Positions 3,432 through 20,831 of a stretch of 23,852 nt of DNA are shown here, piece after piece. Below the pieces are notes generated by a model. It had not been told where the DNA came from. It worked only from the letters and a program-made list of their open reading frames with translations, and ran no database searches. Numbering within the stretch: the stretch's first letter is position 1; every line of letters starts with the position of its first letter. Both the position numbers and the translations under genes were made by a program. Source of the DNA: a virus. Lineage: Duplodnaviria > Heunggongvirae > Uroviricota > Caudoviricetes. The stretch lies in the IMG/VR virus record IMGVR_UViG_2585427740_000001. One strand, given 5' to 3'.

Positions 3432-3770
3432 TTATATCATTAATTTTGTTTCGTGCCAGCCTTTGGTCACCCAGCATTGTGAGTCACCATTACACGGGCA
3501 TGAATTAACAGGAACTCTCTCGCCGCACTTACCGCAACGTTTTCTGCTGATCGATTTTATACGCCAGCGCACACGTGCATCATCCTGGCGGCTCAGTAAC
3601 GCGATGTACTCACCAAACTCGTAAGGCGCATGCCTGAAGCGGCGCGTGGCTCAGTTACGATCCAGCATTTCAATTTCCTGAGCATCAAGTACAAGCTCCA
3701 GCTTACGCATACCGGATGATGCTTGCTTGGCTCTCTGATCGACTTTGCGCTCTGCTGATGATTTAGCCAT
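3432..3770 (-). pseudogene. Small ORF interrupted by an in-frame TGA: 39 codons (3651-3770), opal stop, then 71 further in-frame codons (Cys-rich, CxxC...CxC) ending at TAA 3432-3434
   Basis: Hand translation of the minus strand: MAKSSAERKVDQRAKQASSGMRKLELVLDAQEIEMLDRN*ATRRFRHAPYEFGEYIALLSRQDDARVRWRIKSISRKRCGKCGERVPVNSCPCNGDSQCWVTKGWHETKLMI. AGGA-type RBS before the ATG. Confidence 0.35.
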
Positions 3771-4063: not shown

Positions 4064-4679
4064 TTATCTAAAAGTCTTTCCACTTTTAACGTCTAGGTAT
4101 ATTCTGTTCGACAACGTCATTCCTCCGCAATATGTGAAATAGATGTTTTTCCCCTTATTGCTTGATGCCATCCACCCTCCGATTTCCTTAAAGTCGCTTT
4201 CCGTGCAGACCCCTTCGTTTATTAACTTCCTAGCTGCCGAAGAAAACTCTTTTTTGTATATACGGTAGTCATCAGATCCTTTGATTAAAGTATCATCTCC
4301 GCTCGCATTTTCAGCAGGATCTGATGGCCTTTCACTGCTAAGATCACTAAGTTTAACCCATTCTGAAAACTTGCCATTGACGATTCCGTTTTTTCTTGTG
4401 CAGGATTTATTACCTTCTTTAATATATTCGCTTTCCCCTCCCACACATGAGGCTGAATATGGCTCAGTTATACGAACCCATTCACCTTTTTTTTTCTAGA
4501 AAATCTACGCCTTCCCTGAAAAATAGTTTCCCAGCCACTCCACATTTACTTGAAGGGCAGGTATGTCTTTCCGTTCGATCAACAACAACCCAAAGTCTTG
4601 ATTCATTTTTTGCCATTGCCGATGGTATTTGAGATGAGACAATTAACGTAAGCCCTAAAATTAGTATTGATTTTTTCAT
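4064..4679 (-). pseudogene. Secreted protein gene (about 205 aa if intact) split by a frameshift inside an A9 homopolymer tract
   Basis: Upstream ORF (4482-4679) starts with a signal peptide (MKKSILILGLTLIVSSQIPSAMA) and has a good RBS. It ends at TGA just after nine consecutive A (plus-strand T9 at 4487-4495). The downstream ORF (4064-4444) continues open in the other frame through the tract; removing one A fuses them. Confidence 0.65.
4487..4495. repeat. Homopolymer tract (T9 on plus strand, A9 in the coding strand) at the frameshift point of the 4064-4679 gene
   Basis: Counted directly in the sequence. Confidence 0.9.
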
Positions 4680-4977
4680 TGTAATTTCCTTTTACTTTTT
4701 ACAAAGCGTTTAATCATGGCTGATTATCTTTAAGCGTAGTAACAGCCTTGTGCGAAACATGTTACCAAATCGCCATTTCAGTGTATCCGCAGTTAGGCTG
4801 CCACTTCAAGGATTCCTAATTACATGGTACGTAAGCGTAAAATCCCGTTGGTTGTCGGGTAATAACTCTGATCAAATCTCCCTTGTCTTTTGCTCTTACG
4901 TATGCAGCTCTTGTGTATTCAACCCAGGCCTCCAGTTCAGCAATACGCTTACTTCCATCCGAGATAACACCTTCTAC

Positions 4978-5229
4978 TCACGCTGCTCGTTGAGTTTTGA
5001 TTTTTGCTGTCTCCAGCTCAACACGCAGTTTCCTCACCGTTAGCGCAATATCCTCGTTCTCCTGGTCGCGGCGTTTGATGTACTGCTGGTTTCTTTCCCG
5101 TTCATCCAGCAGTGTCAGCACAATCGATGGTGTTACCAGCTCATGGAAAAGGTCCGCGTCAAATCCCCAGTTGTCATGCATTGCCTGCTCTGCCGCTTCA
5201 CGCAGTGCCTGAGAGTGAATTACGCTCAC
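4978..5229 (-). CDS. Hypothetical coiled-coil protein (83 aa to the first stop); the frame continues for 53 more codons after an in-frame TGA (to TAG at 4816-4818)
   Basis: GTG start overlaps the stop of the upstream TraR-like gene (GTGA overlap). Downstream region 4816-4977 is open in the same frame but has no start codon of its own. Confidence 0.5.
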   Translation of the reverse strand: MSVIHSQALREAAEQAMHDNWGFDADLFHELVTPSIVLTLLDERERNQQYIKRRDQENEDIALTVRKLRVELETAKIKTQRAA

Positions 5230-5447
5230 TTCGAACCTCTCTGTTTACTGATAAGTTCCAGATCCTCCTGGCAACTTGCACAAGTCCGACAACCCTGAAC
5301 GGCCAGGCGTCTTCGTTCATCTATCGGATCGCCACACTCACAACAATGAGTGGCAGATATAGCCTGGTGGTTCAGGCGGCGCATTTTTATTGCTGTGTTG
5401 CGCTGTAATTCTTCAATTTCTGATGCTGAATCAATGATGTCTGCCAT
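5226..5447 (-). CDS. TraR/DksA-family C4 zinc-finger protein (phage-encoded RNA polymerase-binding regulator family)
   Basis: 73-aa ORF with CxxC...CxxC spacing (CCECGDPID...CRTCASC) typical of the TraR/DksA C4 zinc finger. Confidence 0.8.
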   Translation of the reverse strand: MADIIDSASEIEELQRNTAIKMRRLNHQAISATHCCECGDPIDERRRLAVQGCRTCASCQEDLELISKQRGSK

Positions 5448-5545
5448 CTTTCATTAATCCCTGAATTGTTGGTTAATACGCTTGAGGGTGAATGCGAATA
5501 ATAAAAAAGGAGCCTGTAGCTCCCTGATGATTTTGCTTTTCATGT

Positions 5546-5761
5546 TCACCGTTCCTTAAAAACGCCGTTTAACATGCCGATTGCTAGACTTAAATGAGTC
5601 GGTGTGAATCCCATCAGCGTTACCGTTTCGCGGTGCTTCTTCAGTACGCTACGGCAAATGTCATCGACGTTTTTATCCGGAAACTGCTGTCTGGCTTTTT
5701 TGATTTCAGAATTAGCCTGACGGGCAATGCTGCGAAGGGCGTTTTCCTGCTGAGGTGTCAC
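5546..5761 (-). CDS. Hypothetical small protein (71 aa from GTG 5761; alternatively 93 aa from ATG 5827)
   Basis: ORF-track ORF 5546-5827. The GTG at 5761 overlaps the TGA of the upstream 27-aa peptide ORF (GTGA), suggesting coupling. The N-terminal 22 residues of the longer form look like out-of-frame translation of the peptide gene. Confidence 0.5.
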   Translation of the reverse strand: MTPQQENALRSIARQANSEIKKARQQFPDKNVDDICRSVLKKHRETVTLMGFTPTHLSLAIGMLNGVFKER

Positions 5762-6180: not shown

Positions 6181-6861
6181 TCATCGCCATTGCTCCCCAA
6201 ATACAAAACCAATTTCAGCCAGTGCCTCGTCCATTTTTTCGATGAACACCGGCACCATCTCGTCAAAACTCGCCATGTACTTTTCATCCCGCTCAACCAC
6301 GACATAATGCAGTCCTTCACGCTTCATACGCGGGTCATAGTTGGCAAAGTACCAGGCATCTTTTCGTGTCACCCACATGCTGTACTGCACCTGGGCCATG
6401 TAAGCCGACTTTATGGCCTCGAAACCACCGAGCCGGAACTTCATGAAATCCCGGGAGGTAAACGGGCATTTCAGCTCAAGGCCATTGCCGTCACTGCATA
6501 AACCATCGGGAGAGCAGGCGGTGCGCATACTTTCGTCGCGATAGATGATCGGGGATTCAGTAACATTCACGCCGGAAGTGAATTCAAACAGGGTTCTGGC
6601 GTCGTTCTCGTACTGTTTTCCCCATGCCAGCGCCTTAGCATTAACTTCCGGAGCCACACCGGTGCAAACCTCAGCCAGCAGGGTGTGGAAGTAGGACATT
6701 TTCATGTCAGGCCACTTCTTTCCTGAGCGGGGCTTGGCTATCACGTTGTGAACTTCTGAAGCGGTGATGACGCCGAGCCGTAATTTGTGCCATGCATCAT
6801 CCCCCTGTTCGACAGCTCTCACGTCGATCCCGGTACGCTGCAGGATAATGTCCGGTGTCAT
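6181..6861 (-). CDS. exo: Lambda exonuclease (Red-alpha)
   Basis: 226-aa translation ([30 protein letters not shown]...) matches lambda Exo as recalled. Confidence 0.97.
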
Positions 6862-7306
6862 GCTGCCACCTTCTGCTCAGTGGCTTTCTGTTTCAGGAAT
6901 CCAAGAGCTTTCACTGCTTCGGCCTGTGTCAGTTCTGACGATGCGCGAATGTCGCGGCGAAATATCTGGGAACAGAGCGGCAATAAGTCGTCATCCCATG
7001 TTTTGTCCAGGGCAATCAGCAGAGTGTTAATCTCCTGCATGGTTTCATCGTTAACCGGAGTAATGTCGCGTTCCGGCTGACGTTCTGCGGTGTATGCGGT
7101 ATTTTCGACAATGCGCTCGGCTTCATCCTTGTCATAGATACCAGCAAATCCGAAGGCCAGACGGGCACACTGAATCATGGCTTTATGCCGTAACATCCGT
7201 TTGGGATGCGACTGCCACGGCCCCGTAATTTCTCTGCCTTCGCGGGTTTTGAATGGTTCGCGGCGGCATTCATCCATCCATTCGGTAACGCAGATCGGAT
7301 GATTAC
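6858..7306 (-). pseudogene. bet: bet (Red-beta), 5'-truncated: only the C-terminal ~145 codons remain
   Basis: Translation from ...NHPICVTEWMDECRREPFKTREGREITGPWQSHPKRMLRH... to the C-terminus matches lambda Bet as recalled. The N-terminal ~115 codons are absent and the frame runs into ren-derived sequence on the opposite strand. Confidence 0.88.
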
Positions 7307-11173: not shown

Positions 11174-12256
11174 TTAGAACTGGTAAACCATACCTACAGC
11201 AACGATATCATCGGTAGCAACGCCAGATGCTTTCGTGAAATCGCTCTTATCAATCAGGTTGATTTTGTAATCAACAAAAGTGGACATATTTTTGTTGAAG
11301 TAATAGGTTGCACCTACATCAATATATTCAACCAGGTCCTGATCACCCCACGCACCCAAGTCTTTTCCTTTAGATTGCAGGTAAGCAACGGACGGACGCA
11401 GACCGAAGTCGAACTGATATTGTGCAACTACTTCGAAGTTTTGTGCTTTGTTGGCAATATGGTTATTACCAAAAACAGTCATGTTCTGGGTTTCAGAATA
11501 GGTGGTAGCCAGATAGATGTTGTTCGCATCATATTTCAGACCAGCTGCCCATACTTCAGCATTTTGACCAGATGCATTCAGGCTGTTGTTACCGTAGATA
11601 ACCTGATTATTAGTGCGGTCAGATTTAGCATAGGTTGCACCTACACCGAATCCTTCATACTCATAAGTAGTGGAGAAACCGAAACCATCACCATTAGCTT
11701 CAGTTACGTCAGTGCGGTCATTTTTACCCTGATACTGAGCAGCAAAGTTCAGACCATCAACCAGACCAAAGAAGTCATTGTTACGATAAGTTGCAACACC
11801 TGTGGTGCGACCAGTCATGAATACATCTGTTTGGGTCCAGGTATCGCCACCGAATTCTGGCAGAACGTCGGTCCATGCACCAATATCGTATGCTACACCG
11901 TAGTTACGGCCATAATCGATGGAGCCGTAGTCACCGAATTTCAGGCCAGCGAAGGCAAGACGGGTTTTATCTTTGGAGGAACCTTGAGATTCAGCGCGGT
12001 TGCCTTTGAATTCATATTCCCACTGACCGAAACCAGTCAGTTGATCGTTGATTTGGGTTTCACCTTTGAAGCCAAGACGGGCATAAGTAGTATCACCATC
12101 ATCTGCATCATTAGAGGAGAAGTAGTGCTTAGCATTAACTTTCCCGTACAGATCCAGCTTGTTACTGTCTTTATTATAAATTTCAGCTGCCTGAGCAGAC
12201 ATCGCCATCAGTACTGATGCAGCTACAGCAGAAATTGCCACTGTTAATTTTTTCAT
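11174..12256 (-). CDS. nmpC: General porin of the OmpC/OmpF/NmpC(Lc) family
   Basis: 360 aa from [23 protein letters not shown] (signal peptide) to the C-terminal ...VGMVYQF. Resembles NmpC/Lc as recalled. The ORF-track ORF extends 20 codons further upstream, judged spurious. Confidence 0.92.
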
Positions 12257-12682
12257 CGTGAGCCCTTTTTTTGAACTATTATTAAAAAATGATGTCACTG
12301 CGCGATAAATATTCATCTAATCAATGTGATTATTTCAAGATGTAAGTTTTGGTTTCTCATTTGATTTGTGAAGTAGATCTCTATTTTTATCTGAACTTTT
12401 TCTATCGAATCCTATTCATGGCTCTTGGCTGAATAAAAATAAATCTATTAGCCAATTTATATTAATGGCTGTTATTTATAAGTGCTCTATAATTTGAAGA
12501 TTCAATTTAAACCAGCTAAAAATAACGCTGGAAATTATTTGTTGGTTATTTGTTGAGATTTGCTTATGTATTTGTAGTGGTGTTTTCAATACTCGGTAGC
12601 ATTCTCGCAAATATCATTTAGTGGTTTACGTACGTAAAAAATTGGTTATGCTGTTAAGAGTGGTTACTTCGTCACACAGCTT

Positions 12683-17286: not shown

Positions 17287-20250
17287 ATGGCAGTAAAGAT
17301 TTCAGGTGTACTGAAAGACGGCACAGGAAAACCGGTACAGAACTGCACAATCCAGCTGAAAGCAAAACGTAACAGCACCGCGGTGGTGGTGAACACGCTG
17401 GCCTCAGAAAATCCGGATGAAGCCGGGCGTTACAGCATGGACGTTGAGTACGGTCAGTACAGCGTTATTCTGTTGGTGGAAGGATTCCCGCCGTCACATG
17501 CCGGGACCATCACCGTGTATGAAGATTCCCGACCCGGTACGCTGAATGATTTTCTCGGTGCCATGACGGAGGATGATGCCCGTCCGGAGGCTCTGCGCCG
17601 TTTTGAACTGATGGTGGAAGAGGTGGCGCGTAACGCGTCCGCAGTGGCACAGAACACGGCAGCCGCGAAGAAGTCAGCCAGTGATGCCAGCACATCTGCC
17701 AGTGAGGCGGCAACTCATACAACCGATGCTGCAGGCTCAGCTCGTGCCGCCAGCACGTCAGCCGGACAGGCTGCATCATCTGCTCAGTCAGCATCTTCCA
17801 GCGCAGGAACGGCATCAACAAAGGCCAGTGAAGCATCGAAAAGTGCTGCTGCTGCAGAGTCCTCAAAAAGCGCGGCAGCTACCAGTGCCGCTGCGGCGAA
17901 AACGTCAGAAACGAATGCGGCAGCGTCACAACAATCAGCAGCCACTTCTGCATCCGCCGCGACCACGAAGGCGTCAGAAGCTGCCACCTCAGCCCGGGAT
18001 GCGGCGGCCTCAAAAGAGGCGGCAAAATCATCAGAAACGAGCGCAGCCTCGAGCGCCAGTAGTGCAGCCTCCTCGGCAACAGCGGCAGGAAATTCCGCGA
18101 AGGCGGCAAAAACGTCCGAGACGAACGCTAAGTCTTCTGAGACGGCAGCAGCACAGAGTGCCTCCGCAGCAGCAGACTCAAAAACAGCGGCTGCCTCATC
18201 TGCCAGCGCCGCGTCAACAAATGCCGGGCAGGCCTCAGCCAGTGCCACCGCTGCCGGAAAGTCGGCAGAAAGCGCCGCATCATCCGCTTCAACAGCCACA
18301 ACGAAGGCTGGCGAAGCCACTGAACAGGCCACGGCAGCAGCGAGGTCAGCTTCCGCAGCGAAGACATCCGAAACGAACGCGAAAGCGTCGGAAACCAGCG
18401 CAGAATCCTCAAAAACGGCTGCCGCATCGTCAGCCAGTTCGGCGGCGTCATCGGCATCATCGGCGTCTGCTTCAAAAGATGAGGCGACCAGACAGGCGTC
18501 AGCAGCGAAGGGCAGCGCCACGACGGCATCCACGAAGGCGACAGAGGCAGCTGGCAGTGCGACGGCGGCAGCTCAGAGCAAAAGTACGGCGGAATCCGCG
18601 GCAACGCGCGCCGAGACAGCAGCAAAACGGGCAGAGGATATTGCATCCGCCGTGGCGCTTGAGGATGCGAGCACGACGAAAAAGGGGATAGTACAGCTCA
18701 GCAGTGCGACTAACAGCACTTCCGAGTCACTGGCGGCAACGCCAAAAGCCGTTAAGGCCGCGTATGAGCTGGCTAACGGGAAATACACCGCACAGGATGC
18801 AACGACAGCACAGAAAGGGATAGTTCAGCTTAGCAACGCGACCAACAGCACATCTGAAATGCTGGCGGCAACGCCAAAGTCGGTAAAGGCAGCCTATGAC
18901 CTTGCTAACGGGAAATATACTGCTCAGGACGCTACGACAGCACAAAAAGGAATTGTCCAGCTCAGTAGTGCAACCAACAGCGCATCTGAAACGCTTGCCG
19001 CGACACCGAAAGCAGTGAAAGCAGCTAATGATAATGCGAATGGTCGGGTACCTTCTGCCCGTAAGGTGAATGGTAAGGCGCTTTCAGCGGATATAACACT
19101 GACGCCGAAAGATATTGGTACGCTTAACTCAACAACAATGTCATTCAGCGGTGGTGCTGGTTGGTTCAAATTAGCAACGGTAACCATGCCACAGGCGAGT
19201 TCTGTTGTTTCAATTACGTTGATTGGTGGCGCGGGATTTAACGTGGGGTCACCTCAACAGGCAGGTATATCTGAACTTGTTTTGCGTGCAGGTAATGGTA
19301 ATCCGAAGGGGATTACTGGTGCTTTATGGCAGCGCACATCGACAGGGTTTACAAATTTTGCCTGGGTCAATACATCTGGTGATACTTACGATATTTACGT
19401 TGCAATCGGAAATTATGCGACTGGTGTAAATATTCAATGGGATTATACCAGTAATGCCAGCGTGACGATTCATACGTCACCAGCATATTCTGCTAATAAG
19501 CCGGAAGGGTTAACGGACGGTACAGTTTATTCACTCTATACGCCATCAGAGCAGTTTTATCCGCCTGGCGCACCAATCCCGTGGCCATCAGATACCGTTC
19601 CGTCTGGCTATGCCCTGATGCAGGGGCAGACTTTTGACAAATCTGCATACCCGAAACTTGCAGCCGCTTATCCGTCAGCCGTGATCCCTGATATGCGTGG
19701 CTGGACGATTAAGGGCAACCCCGCCAGTGGTCGTGCCGTATTGTCTCAGGAACAGGACGGCATTAAATCGCACACCCACAGCGCCAGCGCATCCAGTACG
19801 GATTTGGGGACGAAAAACACATCGTCGTTTGATTACGGAACCAAATCCACGAATAACACCGGGGCGCATACCCATAGTATTAGCGGGACTGCAAATAGTG
19901 CCGGTGCGCACCAACACAAGAGTTCCGGTGCATTTGGTGGCACGAACACGAGCATTTTCCCTAATGGTTATACCGCGATTTCAAATCTAAGCGCGGGGAT
20001 TATGAGCACAACAAGCGGTAGTGGCCAGACTCGTAATGCAGGGAAGACATCATCAGATGGTGCTCATACCCACTCGCTGTCCGGCACTGCTGCAAGCGCA
20101 GGCGCACATGCACATACTGTCGGTATTGGTGCTCATACGCACTCCGTTGCGATTGGCTCACACGGACACACCATCACCGTTAACGCTGCTGGTAACGCGG
20201 AAAACACCGTCAAAAACATCGCATTTAACTATATTGTGAGGCTTGCATAA
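17287..20250 (+). CDS. stf: Side tail fibre protein Stf (about 987 aa from ATG 17287), with long Ala/Ser/Thr-rich low-complexity region, three ~43-aa tandem repeats and a His-rich C-terminal domain
   Basis: N-terminus [30 protein letters not shown]... and C-terminus ...[11 protein letters not shown] match lambda Stf as recalled. ORF-track ORF begins 2 codons upstream at GTG. Confidence 0.92.
18673..19050 (+). repeat. Three tandem ~129-132-nt repeats inside stf (unit encodes [19 protein letters not shown](S/M)[12 protein letters not shown](E/D)[11 protein letters not shown])
   Basis: Repeated peptide and nucleotide blocks starting near 18673, 18802 and 18934, read directly. Confidence 0.8.
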
Positions 20251-20831
20251 TGGCATTCAGAATGAGTGAACAACCACGGACCATAAAAATTTATAATCTG
20301 CTGGCCGGAACTAATGAATTTATTGGTGAAGGTGATGCATATATTCCGCCTCATACAGGTCTGCCAGCAAACAGTACCGATATTGCACCGCCAGATATTC
20401 CGGCTGGCTTCGTGGCTGTTTTCAACAGTGATGAGTCATCGTGGCATCTTGTTGAAGACCATCGGGGTAAAACAGTTTATGACGTGGCATCAGGGGACGC
20501 GTTATTTATTTCTGAACTCGGCTCATTACCGGAAAATGTTACCTGGTTATCCCCGGAAGGGGAGTTTCAGAAGTGGAACGGCACAGCCTGGGTGAAGGAT
20601 ACGGAAGCAGAAAAACTGTTCCGGATCCGGGAGGTGGAAGAAACAAAAAACAGCCTGATGCAGGTAGCCAGTGAGCATATAGCGCCGCTTCAGGATGCTG
20701 TGGATCTGGAGATCGCAACGGAGGAAGAAACCTTGTTGCTGGAAGCCTGGAAAAAGTATCGGGTATTGCTGAACCGTGTTGATACGTCAACTGCACAGGA
20801 TATTGAATGGCCAGTAGCACCTATAGGGTAA
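20250..20831 (+). CDS. tfa: Tail fibre assembly chaperone Tfa
   Basis: 193-aa translation [51 protein letters not shown]... matches lambda Tfa as recalled. ATG overlaps the stf stop. Confidence 0.95.

Follow-up and report, generated by a model that had tools for sequence, protein, structure and literature searches.

An interrupted ea22 allele in a defective lambdoid prophage: probable truncation by a pair of indels that leaves an opal codon in frame

Introduction

The closest described relative of the locus reported here is ea22 of phage lambda (NP_040612.1, 182 aa; PF13935, IPR025153), which occupies the same position, downstream of an orf73/DksA-like gene. The ea22 gene is reported to be pro-lysogenic in lambda and in Stx phages. 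Its product consists of an N-terminal segment, a coiled coil, and a variable, mosaic C-terminal domain (CTD) that begins, in lambda, at about residue 102 (PMC10834534; PMC7093339), and an NMR structure exists for the lambda CTD (PMC10834534). In Stx phages and further lambdoid phages, Ea22 occurs as mosaic variants (V1-V3, PMC10834534), which, with intact E. coli alleles such as WP_050586153.1 (185 aa), share the stalk module and exchange their C-terminal regions at one joint. These variants are intact ORFs, mostly 155-272 aa in length, with folded CTDs.

Here we analyse an ea22-like locus in a 23,852-nucleotide stretch of DNA, the window, taken as a whole from IMG/VR virus record IMGVR_UViG_2585427740_000001. 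Lambda Ea22 and the window have the N-terminal segment and the helical stalk in common. Unlike lambda ea22, the window carries a +1/-4 indel pair that scrambles nine codons and places a TGA at codon 84; the lambda CTD is missing, and a 36-codon stub downstream of the stop stands in its place. Whereas the Stx and lambdoid variants are uninterrupted, the allele of the window is broken and its tail is a gene fragment.

Programmed read-through of UGA, of which the A1 extension of the Q-beta coat protein is an example, provides a second point of comparison. Like A1-type genes, the locus has a UGA in frame with a downstream open stretch that lacks a start codon. Unlike them, its stop arises incidentally, from a patch read in the wrong frame, its extension shows no conservation under selection, no stimulatory context was detected around it, and a natural variant breaks the frame relation. 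The explanation that we prefer, with a probability of about 0.8, is that the accessory phage gene ea22 is represented here by a truncated, mosaic allele, within a defective lambdoid prophage that occupies the attachment site of lambda in E. coli.

Results

The interrupted reading frame

Both the ORF list and a direct reading of the minus strand confirm the 83-codon ORF of the original prediction, which starts with GTG at 5229-5227 and closes with TGA at 4980-4978. Reading on in that frame likewise confirms 53 further open codons, which end at a TAG at 4818-4816. The accompanying statement that this tail lacks any ATG, GTG or TTG is incorrect if taken literally, as an in-frame TTG (Leu) is found at 4875-4873, codon 119, with 19 codons remaining before the stop; what still stands is that the tail has no plausible start codon of its own. 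Stop-to-stop intervals of at least 53 codons make up 7.2% of those in the window and 5.4% of those in shuffled sequences; taken alone, the length of the open run is unremarkable, and it is homology that makes the tail non-random. Once the frame is restored, the first 17 codons of the tail extend the Ea22 alignment, and 26 more match a different phage gene family in frame. Peptides encoded in the tail reading (codons 85-137) include IAELEAWVEYTR and AELEAWVEYTR. Table 1 lists the features of the locus.

Table 1. Coordinates of the ea22 locus and associated features in the window; for the last row, coordinates are those of the comparison loci named
Feature	Position	Strand	Remarks
Upstream orf73-like TraR/DksA zinc-finger gene, 73 aa	5226-5447	minus	phrog_54 DksA-like, E 2e-25; PGAP "TraR/DksA family transcriptional regulator"
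Shine-Dalgarno-like GAGAGG	5236-5241	minus	6 nt upstream of GTG 5229-5227; read from the sequence, putative function
Truncated ea22 ORF	4978-5229	minus	83 codons + TGA; N-terminal segment plus the greater part of the coiled-coil stalk
A5 homopolymer run	5001-5005	minus	A4 in intact alleles; +1 insertion, frame shift
Nine codons I K T Q R A A * V	4975-5001	minus	shifted out of the frame that gives S K L N E Q R E Y Y in intact ea22; contain opal 4978-4980
Joint of 4-nt deletion (TTAC)	4974/4975	minus	GAGTA-TTAC-GAAGG without TTAC; in ancestral frame gives GAG TAG
Rest of Ea22 coiled-coil module, EGVISDGSKRIAELE	4930-4974	minus	17 codons, 86-102; in frame, after the stop; ends at CTD-swap joint
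79-nt patch, WVEYTRAAYVRAKDKGDLIRVITRQP	4848-4926	minus	87-90% nt identity, in frame, to internal part of phage-plasmid gene
Final 10 codons TGFYAYVPCN + TAG 4816-4818	4816-4847	minus	follow last base of Pro codon; no homologue detected
Rare A4+deletion ea22 allele	L133 1501-1755; L134 1501-1755		GCA_012117635.1, GCA_012717485.1

Assignment to the Ead/Ea22-like family

Family profiles place the locus among Ead/Ea22-like genes. Pfam model PF13935 (Ead_Ea22) matches residues 3-100 of the concatenated reading with 86.6 bits against a cut-off of 27, and PHROG family phrog_250 matches the ORF with an E-value of 8.6e-36; residues 2-20 of the tail match positions 172-190 of the same PHROG. By tblastn, a single alignment to lambda Ea22 covers residues 1-101 at 84% identity and runs across the position of the stop, and at the DNA level nucleotides 1-306 are 93-94% identical to lambda ea22. 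The location agrees with this assignment, in the exo-xis region and downstream of the orf73/TraR-DksA-like gene, and so does the architecture, an N-terminal segment followed by a helical stalk in an AlphaFold (AF2) model of the 83-aa product. The model has a mean pLDDT of 80.7, with values above 90 across approximately residues 40-80, and predicts helices at 4-21 and 25-31 and a long helix at 34-82; the earlier description of the head as a coiled coil is consistent with these helices and fits the published account of Ea22 (PMC10834534).

What the locus lacks is the uninterrupted ORF, complete with CTD, of an intact family member. The frame is stopped at codon 84, and a 36-codon stub follows the RIAELE motif; because of that stop and the missing CTD, we regard the locus as a remnant or truncated Ead/Ea22 allele rather than an intact one. 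Public annotation takes the same position. Where other E. coli genomes match the stretch at 99.9% identity, PGAP gives the identical locus the label [quoted passage not shown]. Public annotations of E. coli thus already carry the truncated ea22 as a pseudogene.

A pair of indels accounts for the opal codon

The TGA had been ascribed to a nonsense mutation, but alignments show a pair of indels, +1 A and -4 TTAC, and no substitution at this site. In the A run at 5001-5005 the window reads GCAAAAATC and lambda reads GCAAAATC. The nucleotides TTAC are lost 29 nt past the run, so that GAGTA directly abuts GAAGG in the window where lambda has GAGTATTACGAAGG. From one indel to the other the window has the same nucleotides as lambda, read in a different frame, and the rest of the aligned ea22 DNA is near-identical to lambda. 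At the protein level, ETAKSKLNEQREYYEGVISDGSKRIA of intact alleles corresponds to ETAKIKTQRAA*VEGVISDGSKRIA in the window (asterisk, stop); aligned piece by piece, ETAK SKLNEQREYY EGVISDGSKRIA of the intact alleles is replaced by ETAK IKTQRAA*V EGVISDGSKRIA.

The TGA at 4978-4980 is therefore present because nine lambda-type codons are read one base out of register, and the tail is back in the frame of the head directly after the stop because the two changes, +1 and -4, add up to a net -3. In the lambda-type frame the deletion itself creates a closing GAG TAG, which means that the gene could not be rescued by one shift at the run of A. Programmed frameshifting there was considered and rejected on the ground that both frames close at once.

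Comparison of orthologues at the TGA position had been proposed as a check. Intact orthologues pass through this position with sense codons, and against 88 intact comparators the locus shows indels and a premature stop within alignable coding sequence, as a frameshifted pseudogene does. In preferring a decayed gene to recoding, the original prediction was right in substance, given these sense codons and the PGAP pseudogene label. It had also named the finding that would speak against it, orthologues that end at the same place and are followed by a non-conserved segment. The outcome is mixed: that pattern is absent from orthologues with other CTDs, while every copy that bears the tail does end here.

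The tail begins at the joint for C-terminal domain exchange

Following ...SDGSKRIA(E/K)LE, the 88 intact IMG/VR alleles carry at least eight unrelated C-terminal sequences, and ea22 homologues in IMG/VR (loci L011-L130) display one sharp recombination joint for domain swapping. Megablast and blastn matches of our query to intact alleles end at nt 305-306, and the foreign tail of the window starts exactly at this exchange joint, after SDGSKRIAELE. Ea22 proteins thus swap C-terminal domains at one fixed joint, with at least eight partners in addition to this fragmentary one.

The source of the patch is a hypothetical gene, 208-221 aa in length, of approximately 110-kb E. coli phage-plasmids (phrog_21749; Cyrano gp97; pSTEC409_1 WP_000108704.1). 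Members of the family (Cyrano CAH1234541.1, pSTEC409_1 WP_000108704.1) have 26 codons in common with the window, in frame, in the pattern WVE[YC]TRAAYVRAKDKG[DE]L[IT]RV[IV]T..., but the window holds an internal fragment only, corresponding to profile positions 137-165 of 208, and the rest of the gene is absent. Nucleotide searches found no match past query nt 388. The tail thus sits in the slot of a CTD but amounts to no more than a fragment; it is open because it is built from former coding sequence.

An ORF antisense to this region (4750-5043, plus strand, 97 aa) has no PHROG match and was treated as spurious. In the Chlobot phage genome, an antisense "hypothetical protein" is annotated over the corresponding part of the ea22 tail (PP925838.1 15877-16161; L004 3187-3471, minus), probably an artefact of gene calling.

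Distribution and age of the allele

Scanning IMG/VR with a gapped pattern yielded 120 loci. The A4 run together with TTAC is found in 88 of these, in intact ORFs mostly of 155-272 aa, and the A5 run together with the deletion is found in the other 32, with the stop at codon 84; none of the 120 has just one of the two changes. The same tail occurs on all A5+deletion loci that reach far enough, and none of the 120 loci has an intact allele with this tail. Head plus tail are present in 118-128 of 5,426 complete E. coli genomes. When a synthetic repaired DNA sequence was used as query against the same 5,426 genomes, no repaired allele was found; its best 60 full-length matches are each 306 nt long, not 309 nt, with identity no higher than 98.4%.

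Among 5.8 billion protein clusters there was no intact Ea22 with the tail, in a search that evidently missed the phage-plasmid family because of its word index and has limited sensitivity to distant relatives. The 53-aa tail query returned only six artefactual fusion ORFs, in which the tail is joined, for example, to a DksA-like N-terminus or to IS-end ORFs. A tblastn search of phages with the tail only found Chlobot and the phage-plasmid family, and nothing more. The exact 83-aa product is found in 940 contigs, under the name "ead/Ea22-like family protein". Chlobot itself, a phage isolated from puddle water with a complete genome of 46.5 kb, has the identical interrupted allele.

A rare allele combines the A4 run with the TTAC deletion and the same tail (Table 1). 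Its product, P0016, is 84 aa in length, ends SKLNEQRE-TAG, and falls in the same protein cluster as the 83-aa product. The allele may be either an evolutionary intermediate or the outcome of a secondary A5-to-A4 slip in the homopolymer. Because this variant has the tail out of frame, the in-frame relation of head and tail is not conserved even within the lineage. Among 35 aligned copies we found 10 haplotypes and nine variable sites in 414 nt, six in the head and three in the tail, a variation too low for selection to be detected.

The ea22 lesion occurs whether the neighboring 112-aa gene is intact or not. Since it is shared with Chlobot and with loci whose neighbor genes are intact, the lesion must be older than the decay of this prophage. 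The proposal that it accumulated during that decay is thus contradicted: Chlobot carries the allele, as do 32 of 120 IMG/VR loci and about 128 of 5,426 complete E. coli genomes, and its exact 83-aa product is found in 940 contigs. The lesion is an old, common allele circulating in viable lambdoid phages, a marker of lineage and not a sign of decay.

Prophage context and the companion gene

The prophage lies at lambda attB, between ybhC and ybhB/bioA, with genes ordered as in lambda: ybhC, int (1419-2489), xis (2467-2685), ..., ea22, the orf73-like gene (5226-5447), orf63/orf60a-like genes, and exo (6181-6861). It is defective, with a truncated RecT, no immunity or replication genes, and a Nu1 gene followed almost directly by tail-fiber genes.

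The interruption in ea22 had been grouped with one at 3432-3770 (minus strand) as two instances of the same phenomenon. For the companion gene a point nonsense mutation does hold up: this 112-aa gene, annotated as a transcriptional regulator, is otherwise intact, and its TGA in the window stands at a codon that is TGT in Chlobot and phiV10 and TGC (Cys) in an epsilon15-like phage. It does not hold for ea22, where the cause is indels. Among the 26 scorable loci with the ea22 double indel, the companion has TGA in 10 and TGT in 16. As the TGA of the companion marks a sub-lineage whereas the ea22 indels are more widely shared, the two cases differ in kind and in age, that of ea22 being the older.

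The gene downstream of ea22 (4064-4679, minus strand) encodes a 204-aa protein with a signal-peptide-like N-terminus (WP_000748284.1) and is intact in NZ_CP069542 and Chlobot. In the window it is frameshifted after approximately codon 64, resulting in separate ORFs at 4482-4679 and 4064-4444.

Expression of the head and tests for recoding

The stop codon of the orf73-like gene, TGA at 5228-5226, overlaps the GTG start of ea22 in the sequence GTGA. Because the GTG start, the GAGAGG element and the GTGA overlap have all been kept, an 83-aa product is plausible. The locus would make only this helical fragment, N-terminal segment and stalk without any CTD, whose translation is probably coupled to that of the orf73-like gene by way of the GTGA overlap and GAGAGG; the 53-codon tail would go untranslated, save for background leakiness of UGA.

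Searches for signals of recoding returned nothing at the feature. Rfam at gathering thresholds, applied to the whole window, gave no match near it, the only match being an unrelated one to IS009 at 20593-20791, and relaxing the E-value to 10 over positions 4700-5300 added only matches at chance level, none of them relevant. The predicted fold of 111 nt around the stop has an energy of -21.1 kcal/mol, compared to -23.0 +/- 2.9 kcal/mol for shuffles (z +0.66), indicating no extra stability. A scan of positions 4400-5600 for promoters and terminators gave nothing within the feature and counts at the level of shuffles. Neither a SECIS element nor a read-through structure was therefore recognized in the RNA. 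Nor are stop and extension conserved as a unit across diverged relatives, which have sense codons at the position of the stop and other CTDs.

Discussion

Possible history of the allele

The most economical history would begin with an intact fusion of an Ea22 stalk to the short tail. Deletion of TTAC would then have produced an immediate TAG, with the 84-aa product that is still found in a few isolates as the result, and a slip in the A run would finally have moved the stop by 1 nt to a TGA and restored the frame by coincidence. The lesion would be old and carried by viable phages and cryptic prophages alike, and it may be tolerated because ea22 is dispensable. There is a counterpoint: two indels only 29 nt apart whose net length is a multiple of three are the pattern to be expected if the downstream frame had mattered. 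We put the restoration of frame down to coincidence, for which the chance is roughly one in three. The invariant TGA, the commonness of the allele and its presence in a viable phage are compatible with some retained function of a short or a read-through product.

Alternative explanations

The truncated-remnant reading overlaps on all structural points with an alternative, possible although we think it unlikely, in which the 83-aa stalk-only Ea22 is a functional short variant under selection, for example an oligomerizing helix that does without a CTD, and only the tail is junk; the locus would then be a gene made shorter and no pseudogene. Persistence of the allele in a phage isolate, in about 128 complete E. 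coli genomes and in more than 940 contigs speaks for such a variant, as do the intact start codon, Shine-Dalgarno sequence and upstream coupling, a product that is confidently predicted as a long helix, and the fact that the A5 and A4 forms end no more than 1 nt apart, at 83 and 84 aa. Moreover, 32 of 35 copies differ by SNPs only, with no added stop, and the other three differ at the 5' end; but the copies diverge by no more than 1.5%, and the lack of further lesions therefore carries no statistical weight. The last seven residues of the product are out-of-frame sequence, all sampled intact family members carry a CTD after RIAELE, and PGAP classes the gene as a pseudogene. CTD and stalk are also treated as a functional unit, although what is reported is only that the "CTD alone is insufficient" (PMC10834534). 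A different cause of truncation, a single-base nonsense mutation gained as this prophage decayed, in the manner of 3432-3770, has very little left to recommend it. The prophage is clearly defective (truncated RecT, no immunity/replication region, Nu1 nearly abutting the tail-fiber genes), its neighboring 112-aa gene has a TGT-to-TGA change, and gene 4064-4679 is frameshifted in the window, all of which would suit ongoing decay; that account is nevertheless refuted for ea22 by the finding of two indels that are shared with Chlobot and with loci whose neighbors are intact. An error of sequencing or assembly would suit the position of one of the changes in a run of A, but its probability is negligible: the 4-nt deletion is outside any homopolymer, and the same allele is seen in more than 100 independent complete genomes, in 32 IMG/VR contigs, and in a phage isolate, which refutes it.

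We consider programmed read-through or recoding of the opal codon to be highly improbable. Under this explanation some ribosomes decode UGA 4978-4980, for example with tRNA-Trp, and produce a 137-aa protein in which the tail serves as a minimal CTD. We give equally scant credence to its extended form, an abundant 83-aa stalk accompanied by a minor 137-aa read-through isoform whose mini-tail replaces the CTD, with a net change of -3 that is no coincidence; were it true, an accessory gene of the lysis-lysogeny decision would be designed to yield two isoforms. The net -3 of the indel pair does keep head and tail in one frame, the tail is joined in frame at the canonical domain joint and has as its core a real coding fragment in its native frame, and the TGA is invariant across all A5 copies of an allele that occurs in a viable phage. 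The stop arises, however, in lambda-type DNA read out of frame and not at a conserved recoding site. The natural A4+deletion variant ends at TAG with its tail out of frame, no version with a sense codon is seen in 5.8 billion protein clusters, Rfam yields no recoding or SECIS element and the local fold has a z of +0.66, and an open run of 53 codons is nothing exceptional, arising by chance in 5-7% of intervals. We accordingly favor truncation of a mosaic ea22 allele by the indel pair. The in-frame opal codon of ea22 is a frameshift scar and does not belong among the candidates for recoding; beyond correct annotation, its importance is slight.

Other features of the window

Approximately 444 nt at 6839-7282 are present in the window and absent from the otherwise 99.9% identical prophage of NZ_CP069542, so the end-points of deletions in the recombination/immunity region vary between strains. 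The ORF located there, 6858-7277 (minus strand), encodes no more of a RecT/Bet-type annealing protein than its C-terminal part. At 5507-5525 (minus strand), just upstream of the orf73-like gene, a terminator-like hairpin is followed by a T run, the sole such site in 4400-5600 and a count at the level of shuffles. The only gathering-level Rfam match of the window, to RF02111 "IS009" (20593-20791, plus strand, 218 bits), falls inside the 3' part of a tail-fiber-assembly gene at 20250-20831. A full-length porin gene of the OmpC/NmpC type (11174-12316, minus strand; 380 aa; Porin_1, E 4e-153) sits between the Q antiterminator and the lysis genes of this cryptic prophage, as in DLP12.
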